A DNA stretch of 64,000 nucleotides from Batkoa obscura (Eukaryota). Location: the NCBI GenBank assembly GCA_030770535.1, contig JASVEC010000002.1, positions 1,178,001 through 1,242,000 on the forward strand, written 5' to 3'. Positions within the stretch are counted from its first letter, which is position 1, and the number at the start of each line of letters is the position of its first letter. Positions 1 to 59,876 of this stretch are shown piece after piece. Both the position numbers and the translations under genes were made by a program. A model generated the notes under the pieces. That model was not told the DNA's origin. It ran no database searches and saw only the letters and a program-made list of their open reading frames with translations.

Positions 1-449
1 TAAAAGCTAAGTAATAGTAAAATAATATTTGTAAGTTTTATTTTTAGTTTAAATTGTATAAAAAGTGGACAAAAATATTAATGAAAAGAATATTTCTGTC
101 AATTATAATTTTTTTTATAAGACACTTTCGATCCTTGTTTATTAGTTTATAGTAATTTTGTAGAGTTTACCTTTTGTTCTTTTTAAATACCATTTCGAAC
201 CCCAATGTAATGCGTTTATACTATAAATGGTTCTTATAAGAAAGATGTTTAAATATCAGATCTTTAAATACCAGATCTTTAATAGTAATAATTTTAATAT
301 TTATAAATAACTATGTTAAATTTATTTTTGAATCTTCTAAATACTAAATACTTAGTTAAACCTAACGTTCGTCTATTGAAATTTAATTACAAATATACTA
401 GAATACCTAATATTAAAAAATTCCAGAGATTATAAATGTTTCAATATAT

Positions 450-511
450 GGGATTGTTTTTTAAATGCAATTTGAGGAGAAAAATTATTAAACTATTGAA
501 AAAACATCCCC
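450..511 (-). mobile_element. MITE family A copy, internally deleted
   Basis: GGGATTGTTTTTT..AAAAAACATCCCC, flanks ATAT/ATAT. Confidence 0.7.
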
Positions 512-859
512 ATATATTAAAAATTACAGATAAACCTCTATACTGTTAGCCAATTTTGAATTCATTTTTTTGATTTTTTCCTTATAAATTTTTTAGTCTT
601 AGACTTTCATTTTCAAAATTAATAATACTTCTATTATTTGTGTTTATAAAACAAAATTTTAAATACTTCATAGAATGCCTTATTACATTAGTCAAATATA
701 AAAATAGTAGCTTCAAAATAAATTTAACTAAGTTTAAAATACCCATTTCATTAAATATGGAATTTCGTATAGTGCTTAAGCTTTTGTTTAAAACCACTAT
801 TTTATTTATATTAATAATATAATTTTGAGTAGTTAAATAACATTCATACCTTAAAATTA

Positions 860-8189: not shown

Positions 8190-9041
8190 ACATGTTTTAT
8201 TATTACATAGCTTTATGTTAAGTTTTATTATTATGAATCAATGCTACTAATAAATATGTTATTAAGACCCTACTATAATAAATACTACTTCATTATTGTT
8301 TGGCGCTTTTTCAATCTTACTTACGGCTTAAAGCATATATATTAAGTTTTAATAGCTTGTATTAATAAGAAAGCTTTATATCACAATTCCTAAAGTAAAG
8401 GCGATGATATATTAATTTTTTATTTTATTTCTAAAATTAAAAATTTTAATTTATAAAAAGAATGATGGGTCAATTGAAATTAAACGTAAGTATTAACCCA
8501 TACATTTTTATTTCTAATGTAGTATTGATACTTATCAAATTGTCTATCAAAAAAGCTAATAGTACGAATATAAACTTGTCCTGATTAATGCGGACGGTTC
8601 AGATTTTATATATTCAAGTTTATAATTGTTGAATAAAGGCTAAATTTATTTAGTGATTATTATTAAAATATTTAATACTACTATTTTATAATTGATTTTT
8701 CCTCACATTTGTTTATTCTCAAATAAGTAATATTCTCTAAAGTGGTCAACTGGGCCTGGATGGTTAGAATTTGGTTAAATGAAATTAGGCTGAATTTATT
8801 AACCAATTAAAAATAAATTTTATTGATTAAAAGAGGAAGGTATGATTTATTAGTTTACCTTTAATGTTTAATGCATGTTTTAATTTGAATCTTATAATTG
8901 AGTCTAGAATATATATAGTCAAAAGATTGACTTAAATTATTAATAAACGTTTGTAATTTCTTTCAACCTTTTTATTAATAATATAAACTACTTTTTGATT
9001 ACTTGTAATCAATTGTGATAAGCATTAAATTTAGCGTTAAA

Positions 9042-10403
9042 ATGAAAGGCGTAATTGATCAAGCCATCTTAAATTTAGAACCAAAAGTGGGGGATAATAT
9101 AGTAAGCTTTGATATCTCATATACGTGGGGTAAAGACCATATACTTCCAAGGGAATTGGAGCCTTTAAGGTCTATAGGTGATGATTTAGCGCAATCCTGT
9201 CTATCATATTTAAAATACGTCCCTAGCAATTCTTTAAGGATAAACAATGAGTTTCGTTTAAATAAGTTGAAAGAACTGGTTAAAGACGAGGAAACATGTC
9301 CTAAAGAAGTTCGTGAGCTATATAAAGAATTATATCATGTTCCAGAATGGGTAGACCAAGATCAAATCAAAAGAGGCCAAACATTATACTGGTCTTACTT
9401 CCCTCTTATTAAATTGATATTATTAAATTGTAGCTTAGTTGGTGGGTTTTCAGCAGAGAAAATAGTAGCCACGTTAAACTGTACAAATTATTTAAATAGC
9501 CCAACCAAAGCATACCCAAGGTTATTGGAAACTGCATTATTTGTAATGGATTGTATGTGCTTCGATGAACTCAAACCAGAAGGAAGGGGCTGGCTATCCG
9601 CCTTTAATGTTAGAATGATGCATGCTCAAGTAAGGCAACATGTTCTACGCTTACCAAAAGGCTTTTATGATAAAAAATTAAATGGTATACCTGCAAATCA
9701 AGAAGATTTATATTCAACGATACTTGTGTTTTCTTATGTAGTATTGATAAATTTAGAAAGGATGGGGATTAATTTATCAGATCAAGATAAAGAAGATTAT
9801 ATGGCATGCTGGAGATATATTGCTTATTTATTGGGAATAAAAGATGAAAATGGATACCTTGCTTCATTTAACAAAGGACGATGCTTAAGGGAAAGTATCG
9901 CGTTTCATTTGTATGAACCAAACCCTCCCCCATCCGAATCTGCATCTGCCATTGCAACTAATGTCCTTAAAGCTTGCTCATACCAACCCCCTTTCTTCCG
10001 TTCATATCATCATAATGTAGAATTAACCCGCTTTTTTATTGGTGACATTCGTTCAGATTATTTGAAATTACCGCATTCCCAGTTATATAAAATTTTAGTA
10101 CCTATTAAGGTGTTTGTGGCCACTCAAATTGTCAAATTTTTTGTATACATCAATCGTGATTGGGTTATGTCTAGCGCTAAAAGTGTAGGGTATAAAACAA
10201 TAGGAAAGATATTGGGCAAATTAAACCCAACCTACCAGTTTGAGATTCATCAAGAAACTAAACATAAGAAAGCGAATCGTAAGTCATCCGTTCCAGATTT
10301 TACAAGCTACTATTGGATTTTTATATTATTTTTATTTATTTTTACTCTATTTTTACGAAACAGTTTTAGCAATTGGAATAATTTGAAATTGATAAGTTTG
10401 TAA
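9042..10403 (+). CDS. MpaB'/latex-clearing-protein-like (DUF2236) ER-bound heme oxygenase, intronless
   Basis: GDDLA, VPEWVDQDQIKRGQ, RLLETALF, GWLSAFNVRMMHAQVR, GIPANQEDL, WRYIAYLLG motifs; C-terminal TM anchor; first ATG at 9042. Confidence 0.85.
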   Translation: MKGVIDQAILNLEPKVGDNIVSFDISYTWGKDHILPRELEPLRSIGDDLAQSCLSYLKYVPSNSLRINNEFRLNKLKELVKDEETCPKEVRELYKELYHVPEWVDQDQIKRGQTLYWSYFPLIKLILLNCSLVGGFSAEKIVATLNCTNYLNSPTKAYPRLLETALFVMDCMCFDELKPEGRGWLSAFNVRMMHAQVRQHVLRLPKGFYDKKLNGIPANQEDLYSTILVFSYVVLINLERMGINLSDQDKEDYMACWRYIAYLLGIKDENGYLASFNKGRCLRESIAFHLYEPNPPPSESASAIATNVLKACSYQPPFFRSYHHNVELTRFFIGDIRSDYLKLPHSQLYKILVPIKVFVATQIVKFFVYINRDWVMSSAKSVGYKTIGKILGKLNPTYQFEIHQETKHKKANRKSSVPDFTSYYWIFILFLFIFTLFLRNSFSNWNNLKLISL

Positions 10404-52273: not shown

Positions 52274-52685
52274 ATTATTAACTGGAGCTTGATTCTATTT
52301 AATATGTAACATATGGATATGCTTTTTAGACATTTAGCTAATATCTTTTTTCATTTTAAGCTTGAGAAGTGCACAAATATCTAAGAAGTAATTCTGTGTA
52401 ACTCAACTTTAATTTTATTATTACTCATCATCTTTAATTAGATGGGAGCATATAGGGGATTTGGAGGATATCATACTGCTTTTTTCATTAATGTTAAAGA
52501 TTATTGTAACTTAGGCAATCTTCTTAAATACTAATACCATCACTTATACAGATATACACTATATCAATTCCAAATTTTGAGTAAAAAAAAATGGAATTAT
52601 GATTGGTTAATTTATATCAATTCGAAAATTAAATAAAAAAGAGAGCTTTTATTAAACAATCTTTTTTAAAAGTTCAACAAACAAG

Positions 52686-55005
52686 ATGGCCGAAAAAGTA
52701 CAAGAGAGATTGGAAGCTATGCTTCCAGAACTAGAAGATCTTAAATCCAAAAGTTTATTTAATGAAAAAGAGATTGCTCAAATTGTAAAAAAGAGAACTA
52801 GTTTAGAATATTCTGTATCTAGAAGGATAGCTAAAAAAGCTGATTATATTCGATATATAGAGTATGAAATGAACTTAGAAAAACTTCGTGTAAAAAGAAA
52901 ATCTCGTTTTAGCAAAAGTAAGTTTATAATAATACTTTATTAATTTTATTAATTTTATTTTTTATAGATAAGAAAACTACTTTAAGTGATTATGCTGGAG
53001 TACGAAGAATTTACAATTTATTTGAAAGGGGACTATTGAAATTTAAAGGGGATTTGAAATTATGGTTACAATATATTGATTTTGCAGAATCCCAGAATTC
53101 TAGTAAAGTAGTATCGAAAGCTTATGGTAAAGCAATTAAGTTATTACCAGGTGCAGAGATCCTATGGATTCAAGCAGCCAATTTTGAGTTTTCAAAAAAC
53201 TTAAATATGGAAGCAGCACGTGTACTAATGCAAAGAGGAGTTAGGTTAAATCTAAATAACAAAATATTGTATTTAGAGTTTTTTCGATTGGAGTTAAAGT
53301 TCATTGAAAAATTAAAGTTAAGAAAGGAAATTTTATTAAAGGATAAAGCTGAAGGTCATTCTATTGAGATTGATAATTTAGATCAAGAAAATCAAGAAGA
53401 AGGGTTAGAAATGGAGGGAAAAATTAATGCTTCTTTACAAGAGGAGGATCCATTACTTCAAGGTGCTATTCCAAAAATTATTTATAATAATACAGTACAA
53501 AAATTTCCAACTGATTTCGATTTACGTGCTAGATTTTTAGATATTTTAGACAGTTTTAGTCCAATTGTAGAATTACATAGTTATATCTATAATTCCATTC
53601 TAGCTGATTTTGCGGATGATGATAGAGCTAAGGATCTCATTTTCAAAAGAGATATGCTTCATTTAAATGAAAACTCTGCTGAATTTGTCGATAAACTTTC
53701 AGCATGTATTGAAAAATATGAACAAGCATTAAGTGCTAAAAGCAGCCCATTATTGCTTTCATTATTTGTCGGATTTTTATTTAATTATTATCAAAGTATC
53801 AAGGAAGCTAATTTGGTAAAACTAATATTATAATCTACAAAAATAAGCTGACTTTTTTTAGAAAACCTTTTTTAGCCTCAAATTAAAAAAAGTATTAAAG
53901 GAGGGGTTAGCTCAATCTCAAAACGATAGTTATTTGTTGACAAAAGAGTTCTACTTTGTATATTTAAATTTTATTCAAGATTGTATTAAAAGTGATAGGC
54001 TTTGTAAGTAAATTGTAAATACATAATCATCAATTTAACTCTTTATTTTTTAGTATCCCAAGTAGCTACCGAGGCATGTAAGAAATACCCTAACATTGTT
54101 GAATTTTGGTTAGTTAAATTACAAACTATTTCAGAGAAAGGTAACCCTTTTATTTATTTATTAAATTTTGTTAATAGTATTAGATCTTAATAAAATAAAT
54201 GCTATCTTATCGGAGGCTATAATTTACAACCCAATATCCAATAATTTATGGGAAAAGTATATAAATGTTACACTTAAGTCAATTGAAAATAATACGTCTG
54301 ATAAATATGAAGGAGATATTAAACCAGATTTTAATAAACAAGAATTAATCTTTTTGGTAAGATAAATATAAATGGATATTTAAATATGTTAATGATTGTA
54401 ATAGAATTCATTATATAAAATAGAGTCTGTCCATTCAAATAATGAAGTGGAAGCTGAAGAACGTAGATCATGTCGAGAATTCATTCACAGTAATATGTTG
54501 AAATGGGCATTTGACATAAAAGGAATAAACTATGTTAGAGAATTAGCAGAGAGGTAAATTGAATATAAAACTAGTTTGTTTATTTATTTGCTAAAAAACA
54601 TGTAATAGGATTTCTAAAAAGGTTCCATTAAGTGTAGTTTTTTATAAAGAGTGGATTCAACTCGAATTAAAAGACTATGAACAAAATATTCATGGAGATA
54701 AATCAGAACCAAAGAGTGAAGAGATGTATCAAAGTTTCAAGAGTTTATTTGATAAAAGAATACTACAAGTAGCCAATAGTAAATTTGATAAGATAAAGAT
54801 ACTTTATGAAAAATTATTACGATTAGACTCAAATGATATTGAGCTTTGGTTGGATTATTTAGCATTTTTGAATCATGCTGCTCCCTCTCATCATGCTTCC
54901 ACTCTTCTTTTAAAAGCTAAACAGACCCTTTCTAAAGAGCTTTATTTCGCTTTGGAACAGGAATATAAGGCTTTTATTACTTTAAAAAAGGATCAAGAGT
55001 TATAA
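52686..55005 (+). CDS. UTP6: U3 snoRNA-associated protein 6, multi-exon
   Basis: MAEKVQERLEAMLPELEDL, IVKKRTSLEY, DYIRYIEYEMNLEKLR, HAT repeats, YFRLEL-like motif. Confidence 0.93.
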
Positions 55006-55225: not shown

Positions 55226-55950
55226 ATGTCTGACGAAATCAAAGAAATTGAAACAGTTGAAGAGATAACTATATTACAGCCAAGTAAAGAAGGAGGGGCT
55301 ATAAAATTTGATCCAAAAGATATATCAGTATTAGAGATATTATTAACATTTACTGAACTTCAAGGGTTACGTGTTGGGTGGTTTAAATCATTGGATAAGT
55401 AAGTTAAAATTCAATAGTAAGTAAAGGAAAAAAGAGTAATAATACTTAATACATATAGTTATTTTAAATCGTACACTGAAAACAAAATCTCGGTTGAAGA
55501 ATATAGATCAAAAAATGAAGTACTTAAAGAAGAACAAAAAAAATTCACTCATCATTGTTTAGCTTTGATCAATAACTTGAAGGATGAAGCTAGTTACAAA
55601 CGACCAGACTTAGGGGATAAACTAGAAAATATTTTGAAATTGGAAAAGTTACTGTTAGAAACAGTGAGTCTAATTTATATGCTTGATTATTATTATTATT
55701 AAATAAATTGATATAATTAATCAATAGACAGCTCAATTGCAAACCGCTACTGTTTTAGACGCTACTGAAGATAGAGATTATTCTGAAGATAAAACAAGGT
55801 TAAATGCAAAGTAAGCGGATTATTAAATCTTGATTGTTTTTTTTGTTTAATATTGTTATATTTAATTTTAGAGTGGAAGAGCTAAGAAAAGAAATATCTG
55901 AAGCTATGTTTGAGCTTCATGAAGACATGGCAGATTTATATGAAGAATAG
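55226..55950 (+). CDS. REX1-B/C19orf60-like helical protein, 179 aa, 4 exons (55226-55398, 55459-55663, 55728-55810, 55872-55950)
   Basis: Hand-spliced exons total 540 nt in frame; LLTFTELQGLRVGWFKSLDNYFKSY and RPDLGDKLENILKLEKLLLETTAQLQ resemble the REX1-B family. Confidence 0.7.
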
Positions 55951-57250: not shown

Positions 57251-57791
57251 ATGCCAACTACTGAAAAAACTAATGTTACTAACGAAACTTCCCCTCAAGC
57301 CTTAAAGGCTGGTCATGCTCCTGCTGGTAAATTCAATTTTAATAAATAGTATATAATGACTTAATAACAACCACCTTTTTAGTTAAAGTAGGTGGTATGC
57401 GAGTACCTCAAGCTAATCCCCATGTGAGTGTCAAAGTGTAAGTAGTTTGTTATATATAATATATAATCATAAGTTTCAATTTCAGTTTTAACTGCCTCTT
57501 CTTTTTGTCAAGAGACTAATCGATTTTCAATTAACTAGTGATCCACTTCCTGGTAATTTATCACGCGCTGAAAAACAAGCGCTCACTAATAATGAAGATT
57601 TTTCACATGACCAAGAAGAGCAGATTGAAAATGCTAAAGAAGAAAAATTAAAAGAAGAAAAATTAAAGAGAGCTGAACAAGGTCAAAAACAAAAGGATTT
57701 GGAACGTAATACCCTGCCTAAGAATCAGGATATGAATATGAGAAATAATAATACTAGAGTTTTTCAACCTAATAAACATATGGGAAATTAA
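57251..57791 (+). CDS. DAP1/DAPL1 (death-associated protein)-like, 127 aa, 3 exons (57251-57326, 57383-57437, 57539-57791)
   Basis: Spliced KAGHAPAVKVGGMRVPQANPH versus human DAP KAGHPPAVKAGGMRIVQKHPH; C-terminal RVFQPNK versus HIQQPRK; TATAAAA upstream; ACC-ATG context. Confidence 0.85.
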
Positions 57792-58060
57792 ATGCCCTAA
57801 AGCTATAGCTAATAGTTTGTTTAAATTTAAATTTATTTCATTTGTACTATTATCTTTTATTGTTTGTTACTTAGAAGCTTATTATATAGGCTATTCAAAT
57901 GGTTTGATGGCTTTTACTATTATATACAAAGGACAAATACACCAATTAAAATCAATCAAACATATCATTAATACTAAGAATTAGAATATTTATTCTTGAT
58001 TAGTAGAAATAACATTTTAATTTCAATTAGATTATGAGAAGACATTAATTGAAACACATT

Positions 58061-59876
58061 TCAAAAATACAATTCTTGATTAATAAAATTAGGTAATTCA
58101 TGAGGTAATTGATCACGTTGTGGATAAAAAGTATAATTCAGTGGATAATCATTTAAATTTTCTAGCTTGGAAGTATATCTAAATAAAAAAGAAAAGATTA
58201 TTAACGATAATACAACAATATAAATAAGGTCAAAAATAAAAATACAATAGACAATAGTATATGGTGAAATAAACTACTTACAAATCTGCAAATGTTCGAA
58301 CTTTTTTTGCAAAATAGGTTGGATTATGATGAGTTCGAAATAAACTACCAAATTGTAAATTATACACTTGCTTCAAAGTATTTCTATATTGCTTCCTTTC
58401 TAATCTCCATTGTTGTACTAAATCTCCCAATTCCTTACTTTGATCTCCGTTATTACTAGCTAATAATAATAATTGCTCTAAATGTAATAAATAAGATAAT
58501 CTGGATCTAGCTTGTGGTGTAGCTGCATATTCCATTTCAGTTTCCAATTCGTCAATAATTGCTCCAGTACGCCAGCCTTGTTGAAGGGTAGGGTCAACTA
58601 AATCCGAGTAAATATGATCCCCTATATACATCACTTTCTGTCCACGCCAACCAGTTAATTTAGAAAACTCTTTTAAATTACCACCTTGATATACTTGACC
58701 TCGTTGAAATTTAGAAACAGCTTCCATATCTAATTCAATGCTGTTTTCTAGAGTCTAAATGAACAAAATGAAATAGAAAATGATATTAAAAATAGAAACA
58801 AAAAAACAAGGCAAAATAAATTACTTGGTTAGCTCGATCTCCATTTGTTTTTACTCTTCTAAAAGGCCTATGAGAGGTATAAAAACTTGGCTTTTTACTA
58901 CTAACTACTACAACATCAAATAAATCCCTCCAATCTTTACTTGATGTTAAATATTCCATGCCTTTATTTCTATATTAATGATTTATTAACAATTATAATA
59001 TGAAATATAAAATATATAAAAAACTTACACGAATAAATAACCTGAGTTCGTTAATAAAAACAATTCTTTCTTACCTTTTCTCAAATTTTGTAAATAATTT
59101 ACTAGCTTATTTGATGGCTCTAAATATTTAGGGACTTGTTTCAAGATTTCTAAATGTAATAATCCGACTCCAAATGGATGATTATAGGCTGAGGAATGAA
59201 TGGCTTCTCCCATTGCTCTTACATCGTCATATAAATGTCTTGGATGAAATTGAATTTGTTTTTCATTAAAATAATCAATAATATCAGCCAATAAACAAAT
59301 CTCTGGTAATGAAAACATATCGTTTAATTGAGTTAAATTTTCCAACATATATTTTGGTGAAATATGAGTACCATTATGTAATTCAATAATAGTGTTAATA
59401 TCTTTTATAGGTTGTTTACCAAAATAAACCGTATTAAGCTGAATATTATGATAAGCATCTACTTTCATTAAATACCCTGTTTTAACATCATAATGTAAAC
59501 CACGTACAGCAAAACTAGGATCGTAATTGAATTCTAACAATGCCTTTGGATAACCCATTCTAAGAACTAACATATCTCTTAACATTGTGAATATTTTTTT
59601 AGGTAATTCTTGAGTATAATTAGCTAATGTATAATCATAATCAAACCCATAAGTTTGTATAAAATCTAAATTTACTTCATTGTGACAAAACACTCCATTG
59701 GGATTGAGTTCCGTGGGTGTAATTAGAAAGTTTTTATGGGGCAAATTCGTTTTGGGCTGAAAATGTTGGGATTTTATCTTTTGATATGCTTCTTTGAGTT
59801 GATGAATGGTTAAAGTATTTGTACTATAATGACGAGTGGTAAGTTGGGTTTTGAGAAGATTTAAGGCAAATTTCAT
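58061..59876 (-). CDS. HAD-superfamily 5'-nucleotidase (NT5DC2/3-like), 4 exons
   Basis: YGFDYDYTLANY, FAVRGLHYD, LFLLTNS, WRDLFDVVV, MYIGDHIYSDL, GWRTGAII, FGSLFRT, FADLYTS, LPHE. Confidence 0.93.

Follow-up and report, generated by a model that had tools for sequence, protein, structure and literature searches.

The closest described systems to the gene reported here are the Dap proteins of vertebrate ribosomes. The C-terminus of Dap1b fills the ribosomal exit tunnel and places an invariant glutamine at the position of the nascent-chain end; in zebrafish the hypusine of eIF5A is the bonding partner of this glutamine, and binding is lost when the glutamine is mutated, while the residue just ahead of it (Gln in Dap1b) forms a hydrogen bond with 28S rRNA in the vertebrate structures (10.1101/2021.11.03.467131). 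Coral and worm Dap1 also bind rabbit ribosomes, and tunnel-plugging Dap proteins have been described as conserved across animals (10.1101/2021.11.03.467131). In the accessible part of a 2024 review the only sources given for Dap1b are frogs and fish, and the range of each hibernation-factor family is called unclear (PMC11102965). Excerpts of other papers place Dap1b in vertebrate oocytes and present SNOR as a fungal tunnel/eIF5A factor (PMC13345908), state that no plant homolog is known (PMC12647502), confine their sequence comparison to animals (PMC11204009) or deal with DAP in fish ovaries (PMC13588334).

The full-text literature that we searched described no fungal DAP1 (most subscription journals and the Leesch extended alignment, where one could appear, lay outside its scope) and mentioned PF15228 and IPR024130 nowhere; the supplements of PMC9026835, PMC6158513, PMC10406608, PMC10079182, PMC6040629 (12 of 16 files) and PMC10282164 held no DAP entry. 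This agrees with an earlier note on the same DNA, whose author knew of no characterised fungal member. What is new here, as far as that literature goes, is a fungal DAP1/Dapl1 homolog described from sequence; what was already known is a gene record with an automatic Pfam tag.

A three-exon gene that is spliced and transcribed

The layout of the gene within the window (the whole 64-kb stretch of DNA analysed here) is shown in Table 1. Joining the exons gives 384 nt, an open frame of 127 amino acids plus stop that encodes a small, basic protein (14.3 kDa, pI 8.9, computed from the 127-residue translation). The GC content of the introns is 0.20-0.25, against 0.32-0.44 for the exons. The gene is absent from the ORF track because unspliced exon 1 reaches a stop codon no more than eight codons past its donor. 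Since 13 donor-acceptor pairs for each of intron 1 and intron 2, those of the earlier reader included, would give in-frame joins on paper, transcript evidence was required.

Splicing was checked in eight public runs from seven studies, out of 21 runs listed. X10 alone is recorded as RNA and the RNA nature of the other runs is a guess; they were taken as transcripts because spliced joints cannot arise from genomic DNA, and also because of the poly(A) tail. The intron 2 joint (57437/57539) was present in all eight runs, and in six under a strict rule of at least 31 letters on each side. The intron 1 joint (57326/57383), for which the earlier note sought RNA support, was found in five of the eight, four of them under the same rule. 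At intron 1, X2 and X3 contain loose ends compatible with the joint and nothing more, and X5 an unspliced contig alone; both joints are crossed by single contigs in X4, X6 and X7. A poly(A) tail begins in X2 and X3 past 57807, 16 nt beyond the stop codon. The gene is confirmed as spliced and transcribed, and the three in-frame exons proposed earlier (57251-57326/57383-57437/57539-57791) had been placed correctly. X1-X3 have high contig depth across the gene, a measure that cannot rank expression and says nothing of spores.

Contigs of X1, X3 and X5 leave intron 1 unspliced, and its retention would end translation inside the N-terminal motif. A 2127-nt contig of X1 begins in exon 3, covers 579 nt of the window (57600-58178) and then leaves it, heading toward a convergent 5'-nucleotidase gene; the 3' ends of the two genes may overlap.

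Of the 15 coding differences found across the runs, 14 taken from the difference tables and one an amino-acid-changing base at the intron 2 joint, 12 were silent, against an expected silent share of 0.34 for transitions (p = 3.4e-4, a guide only, the differences being pooled over runs, non-independent and partly from one second variant). These differences show purifying selection on the gene. The second transcript variant lies beside the reference-like form in X2, X3 and X10; it is several percent diverged with mostly silent changes, and in X2 its 5' leader also differs. Its origin may lie in a paralogous gene, a divergent allele or a mixed sample.

Table 1. Coordinates of the gene, its motifs and other genes of the window.
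Feature	Position	Strand	Remarks
Coding exon 1	57251..57326	+	Met1 to first base of Val26; covered by spliced contigs
Ser-Pro site	57290-57295	+	In exon 1, just ahead of the N-terminal motif
Intron 1	57327..57382	+	56 nt, GT..AG, phase 1 in the Val26 codon (N-terminal motif); joint in X1, X4, X6, X7, X10
Coding exon 2	57383..57437	+	Latter half of the N-terminal motif
Intron 2	57438..57538	+	101 nt, GT..AG, phase 2 in Val44; joint in 8/8 runs
Coding exon 3 through stop codon	57539..57791	+	99% identity to P0001; transcript-covered
DAP N-terminal motif, residues 18-32	57302..57402	+	Split by intron 1; Pfam PF15228 profile 1-21; Xenopus Dapl1 E 1.2e-5
Predicted charged α-helix, residues 66-102 (54% K/R/E/D)	57603..57713	+	AlphaFold2 of P0001 (helix 74-110 in P0001 numbering)
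C-terminal motif Val118-Phe-Gln120-Pro-Asn-Lys123	57759..57776	+	Profile alignment, column counts
Gln120 codon	57765-57767	+	Aligned with the invariant DAP Gln
Poly(A) addition point	57807	+	Loose ends in X2 and X3, both from one study
Utp6-like HAT-repeat gene	52656-55005	+	PF08640, E 8e-27
Probable spliced gene, at least 3 coding pieces	55226-55950	+	Upstream of the DAP gene; one scanned piece, best Pfam E 0.11
ORF with MpaB/rubber-oxygenase catalytic domain	9009-10403	+	PF09995, E 5e-12

The public record holds a mis-spliced model

The sole protein retrieved by exon 3 was KAI9296887.1 (K502DRAFT_328700; P0001), listed as hypothetical for Neoconidiobolus thromboides (Entomophthorales) and carrying a precomputed PF15228 tag (PF15228.12). 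This model has 135 aa; its intron 2 acceptor at 57514 adds eight extra residues, and one further residue differs from the window. Acceptor 57514 was used in none of the eight runs, and the 135-aa model was rejected. In the public record the gene is therefore present but mis-spliced and unnamed, so that the description of the gene as hidden was overstated, although true of the ORF track.

Full-length homolog searches found nothing but the gene itself, and tblastn found no second copy within the 64-kb window. Insect contamination was considered and rejected: the contig is fungal (it bears a Zn2Cys6 gene), and the gene agrees with the record from N. thromboides. The neighbours are the Utp6 gene and a spliced gene upstream, and the convergent 5'-nucleotidase gene downstream; nothing suggests a functional cluster.

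The protein is a divergent DAP1/Dapl1 homolog

Pfam DAP (PF15228.11) was the only family matched by the 135-aa P0001 (E 1e-5, over positions 1-21 of the 98-position profile), and the score of 26.8 bits fell just under the gathering cut-off of 27. Exon 2 alone had DAP as its sole Pfam match (E 0.1). The best matches among PDB sequences were ribosome-bound Dap proteins, Xenopus Dapl1 (7oyc_s1, E 1.2e-5) and zebrafish Dap1b (7oya_s1, E 0.035); the C-terminal 32 residues alone gave no match there. A motif search with residues 8-47 returned 22 non-self proteins, every one tagged PF15228 (E 0.013-2.5 in a large database); the 16-residue motif is identical in eight of them, and the seven with species names come from a mite and from molluscs. 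An exhaustive search of representatives returned the gene's own protein and one unrelated-looking protein of 3743 aa. Scanning metagenomes for the motif, with a pattern blind to genomic copies that have an intron inside it, gave 35 loci, of which 34 were DAP-like and all of animal type and one was a chance match; viral contigs and prokaryote genomes gave no match.

A profile was built from 53 distinct animal-type sequences, consisting of 33 of the 35 metagenome loci together with motif-search and PF15228-tagged proteins; L020 (the chance match), L024, P0011 and P0026 (cut by introns), P0001, P0002 and duplicates were left out. 'Animal-type' here means resembling the species-named sequences, most of the 53 being unnamed. 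Residues 14-123 of the 127-aa protein aligned to this profile with 35.4 bits, whereas the best of 2000 shuffles reached 9.5. The N-terminal motif was the criterion for choosing the set, which makes its match circular but leaves the comparisons of the centre and the C-terminus free of that circularity; taken by themselves, the last 30 residues scored only 2.6 bits. With the sole Pfam match, the Dapl1 match and the profile score all in agreement, the homology to DAP1/Dapl1 proposed in the earlier note is upheld. Judged by its sequence, the protein is a divergent DAP1/Dapl1 homolog and not a canonical animal-type DAP1.

Both terminal motifs are kept and the middle is lost

Among the 24 columns conserved in at least 80% of the 53 sequences, the protein agrees at 16, comprising the start Met, every one of the 12 in the N-terminal motif, one central Pro and the terminal Gln-Pro. 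Seven of the eight mismatches fall in the middle of the protein. The N-terminal motif P-A-V-K-A-G-G-M/K-R is matched at every position except for an Ala to Val change at the K-x-GG position, where Val is found in 31 of the 53; the motif is intact.

At the C-terminus, Gln120-Pro121 aligns with columns fixed in all 53 sequences, and Lys at Gln+3 is shared with 32 of the 33 that reach that far. Against the consensus I-Q/H-Q-P-R-K/R-x, the Gln, Pro and Lys agree, and the Val at the Ile position is found in 3 of 53. The flanking residues are atypical: none of the 53 has any hydrophobic residue at Gln-1, where the protein has Phe, and none has its Asn at Gln+2. The C-terminal match seen by the earlier reader (VFQP with IQQP) holds at its core, hydrophobic-x-Gln-Pro-x-Lys, and not at these two positions. 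A hydrophobic-x-Gln-Pro so near the C-terminus has a chance of 0.002-0.003. The spacing of the two motifs is 99 residues (81-100 in the animal-type set), the last 25 residues carry a net charge of +3 (+1 to +5), and seven residues follow the Gln, against two to six.

The central block Gly..Phe..Ala..His..Lys..Pro is absent. In the set its Gly is found in 53 of 53, His in 52, and Ala and Pro in 51 each; most of the block is present in both ribosome-bound vertebrate proteins, Dapl1 and Dap1b, 18-36 residues ahead of the Gln and within reach of the tunnel. This absence and the two atypical flanks were overlooked when the likeness to DAP was first drawn. AlphaFold2 of P0001 predicts two helices, among them a long charged one at the position of the block, and coil elsewhere (pTM 0.22 from single-sequence input, a low-confidence model).

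Xenopus Dapl1 (7OYC chain s1) and zebrafish Dap1b (7OYA, 7OYD) are likewise small, mostly disordered and basic with a C-terminal Gln-Pro, and with Dapl1 20 of 25 aligned residues of the N-terminal motif are identical or similar. In contrast to these proteins of 109-113 aa, the fungal protein lacks the central Asp-Phe-Pro..His..Pro block, has a predicted 37-residue charged helix, and has Phe before the Gln and seven residues rather than four after it. With invertebrate DAP1 proteins (PF15228) it has in common the 16-residue motif, identical in 8 of the 22 motif-search matches, the Val at the K-x-GG position and a motif spacing within their range; the fungal protein differs from them in a Pro content of 7% against 11%, in exceeding their range of 97-118 aa and in having no central block.

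Intron 1 lies in phase 1 within the Val codon of the motif, and the first intron of human DAP appears to be phase 1 in the same Val codon as well. An intronless animal-type DAP1 occupies 314-649 (-) of a 3.7-kb metagenome contig (L007), and a 25-kb contig (L024) bears a second animal-type DAP1, without an intron inside the motif. Intron positions therefore differ among animal DAP1 genes, although the search pattern could find only cases without the motif intron.

A candidate plug of idle ribosomes

We lean towards the view that the protein acts as a hibernation factor, plugging the exit tunnel of idle 80S ribosomes beside eIF5A. By analogy with the vertebrate structures, the C-terminal tail would thread up the tunnel until Gln120 occupies the position of the nascent-chain end and forms a bond with the hypusine of eIF5A, the N-terminal motif would provide an anchor close to eL31, at the mouth of the tunnel, and the ribosome would be kept from translating until the plug is released. 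Judging only by the anatomy of the protein, the upper tunnel could be occupied by the 17 disordered residues that link the predicted helix to Gln120, and the vestibule or the space outside it by the charged helix, which would replace the animal central block. The best argument for a conserved mechanism is that evolution has replaced the middle of the protein yet kept both of the ends used by the tunnel model, with their spacing unchanged. The case for tunnel plugging is weakened by the loss of the rRNA-bonding residue and of the central block. The longer tail need not be a fatal objection: Dap1b itself extends beyond the nascent-chain end, and MDF2 of microsporidian spores, according to the part of its description available, passes the peptidyl transferase centre further than Dap1b (10.1101/2024.11.25.625233). 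Family membership does not guarantee activity, because in rabbit lysate repression of translation by zebrafish Dap and binding by Drosophila Dap were not observed (10.1101/2021.11.03.467131).

The N-terminal motif accounts for nearly the whole homology score, and the corresponding vertebrate region cross-links to Rpl31 outside the tunnel (10.1101/2021.11.03.467131). Together with the lost central block and the two atypical C-terminal flanking residues, this would suit a genuine DAP homolog that uses only that motif to attach to the ribosome surface or to another partner, its C-terminus having drifted and plugging no tunnel. We judge this unlikely: Val-x-Gln-Pro-x-Lys is retained at the expected spacing despite the unalignable sequence between the motifs, and all five differences listed between 57713 and 57758 are silent.

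The protein might instead be mainly a TOR-controlled brake on autophagy or stress regulator like mammalian DAP1, its contact with ribosomes being incidental. According to the accessible part of one paper, DAP1 restrains autophagy and is silenced by mTOR phosphorylation (PMC3757434), and the disordered fungal protein carries a single Ser-Pro immediately ahead of the motif, with a counterpart in Xenopus Dapl1. However, Ser/Thr-Pro is found ahead of the motif in just 15 of the 53 animal-type sequences and the fungal protein has none in its middle, tunnel binding is the only molecular mechanism in the Results of 10.1101/2021.11.03.467131, and in the excerpts available the autophagy and ribosome roles may be one pathway. 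We regard this account as quite improbable.

A tunnel plug would have company in the fungal lineage. SNOR/Rtc3 of fission yeast is, in the part of the paper available, a dormant-ribosome factor whose C-terminal tail lies in the exit tunnel and contacts hypusinated eIF5A (PMC13345908); it differs in its folded SBDS domain and in promoting restart, and we found no sequence relation to the fungal DAP. The two proteins would need overlapping sites on the ribosome. MDF2 is a charged, tunnel-binding hibernation factor of fungal-lineage spores (10.1101/2024.11.25.625233); according to the excerpt, the sequences of MDF2 and Dap1b show little conservation, and we set MDF2 beside the fungal DAP by description only.

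Distribution among fungi and origin of the gene

In the ESM Atlas the top cluster (score 0.92, 203 of 256 features) has 234 members, 99% of them eukaryotic, with Mucoromycota as the commonest phylum and PF15228 on 18%. The next clusters are chordate DAP1 (0.88), and a Basidiomycota cluster of 72 members (0.85) is a lead only. The top cluster may be the protein's own and has many fungal members either way; its low share of PF15228 would fit proteins matched through the N-terminal motif alone. As summarised in the Atlas, it suggests a wider fungal DAP branch. Structure matches in the Atlas all had TM below 0.5, a second Atlas query, on unnamed clusters, gave no usable feature match, and the full-length, representative, motif and metagenome searches recovered no sequence of a fungal relative.

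Every species-named homolog sequence that was recovered (7 of the 22) is animal, and the motif is identical to that of mollusc DAP1 across 16 residues, as might be expected had an insect-pathogenic lineage acquired the gene from an arthropod or other animal host. We consider such an acquisition very improbable, given the predominance of Mucoromycota in the nearest Atlas cluster and its PF15228 tags, a protein body unlike that of any animal DAP, two spliced introns, and AT-rich codons like those of the fungal contig (Zn2Cys6 gene). Ancestral retention in fungi is the likely origin, a preference that draws on the Atlas cluster summary.

On a broader and more tentative view, which may well prove wrong, the DAP1 plug would predate the split of animals and fungi, and early-diverging fungi, perhaps with some Basidiomycota, would keep a two-motif form whose charged helical spacer helps to lock spore ribosomes, beside or alternating with SNOR at the site facing eIF5A. 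A fungal branch, if true, would date the DAP family to the opisthokont ancestor. The fungal protein would then amount to a deletion experiment made by nature, in which two terminal motifs and one glutamine are the parts that outlast a billion years. The corrected gene model provides the right protein for tests, and the question would shift to culturable fungi with true dormant spores, in which knockouts and cryo-EM of spore ribosomes are practical.
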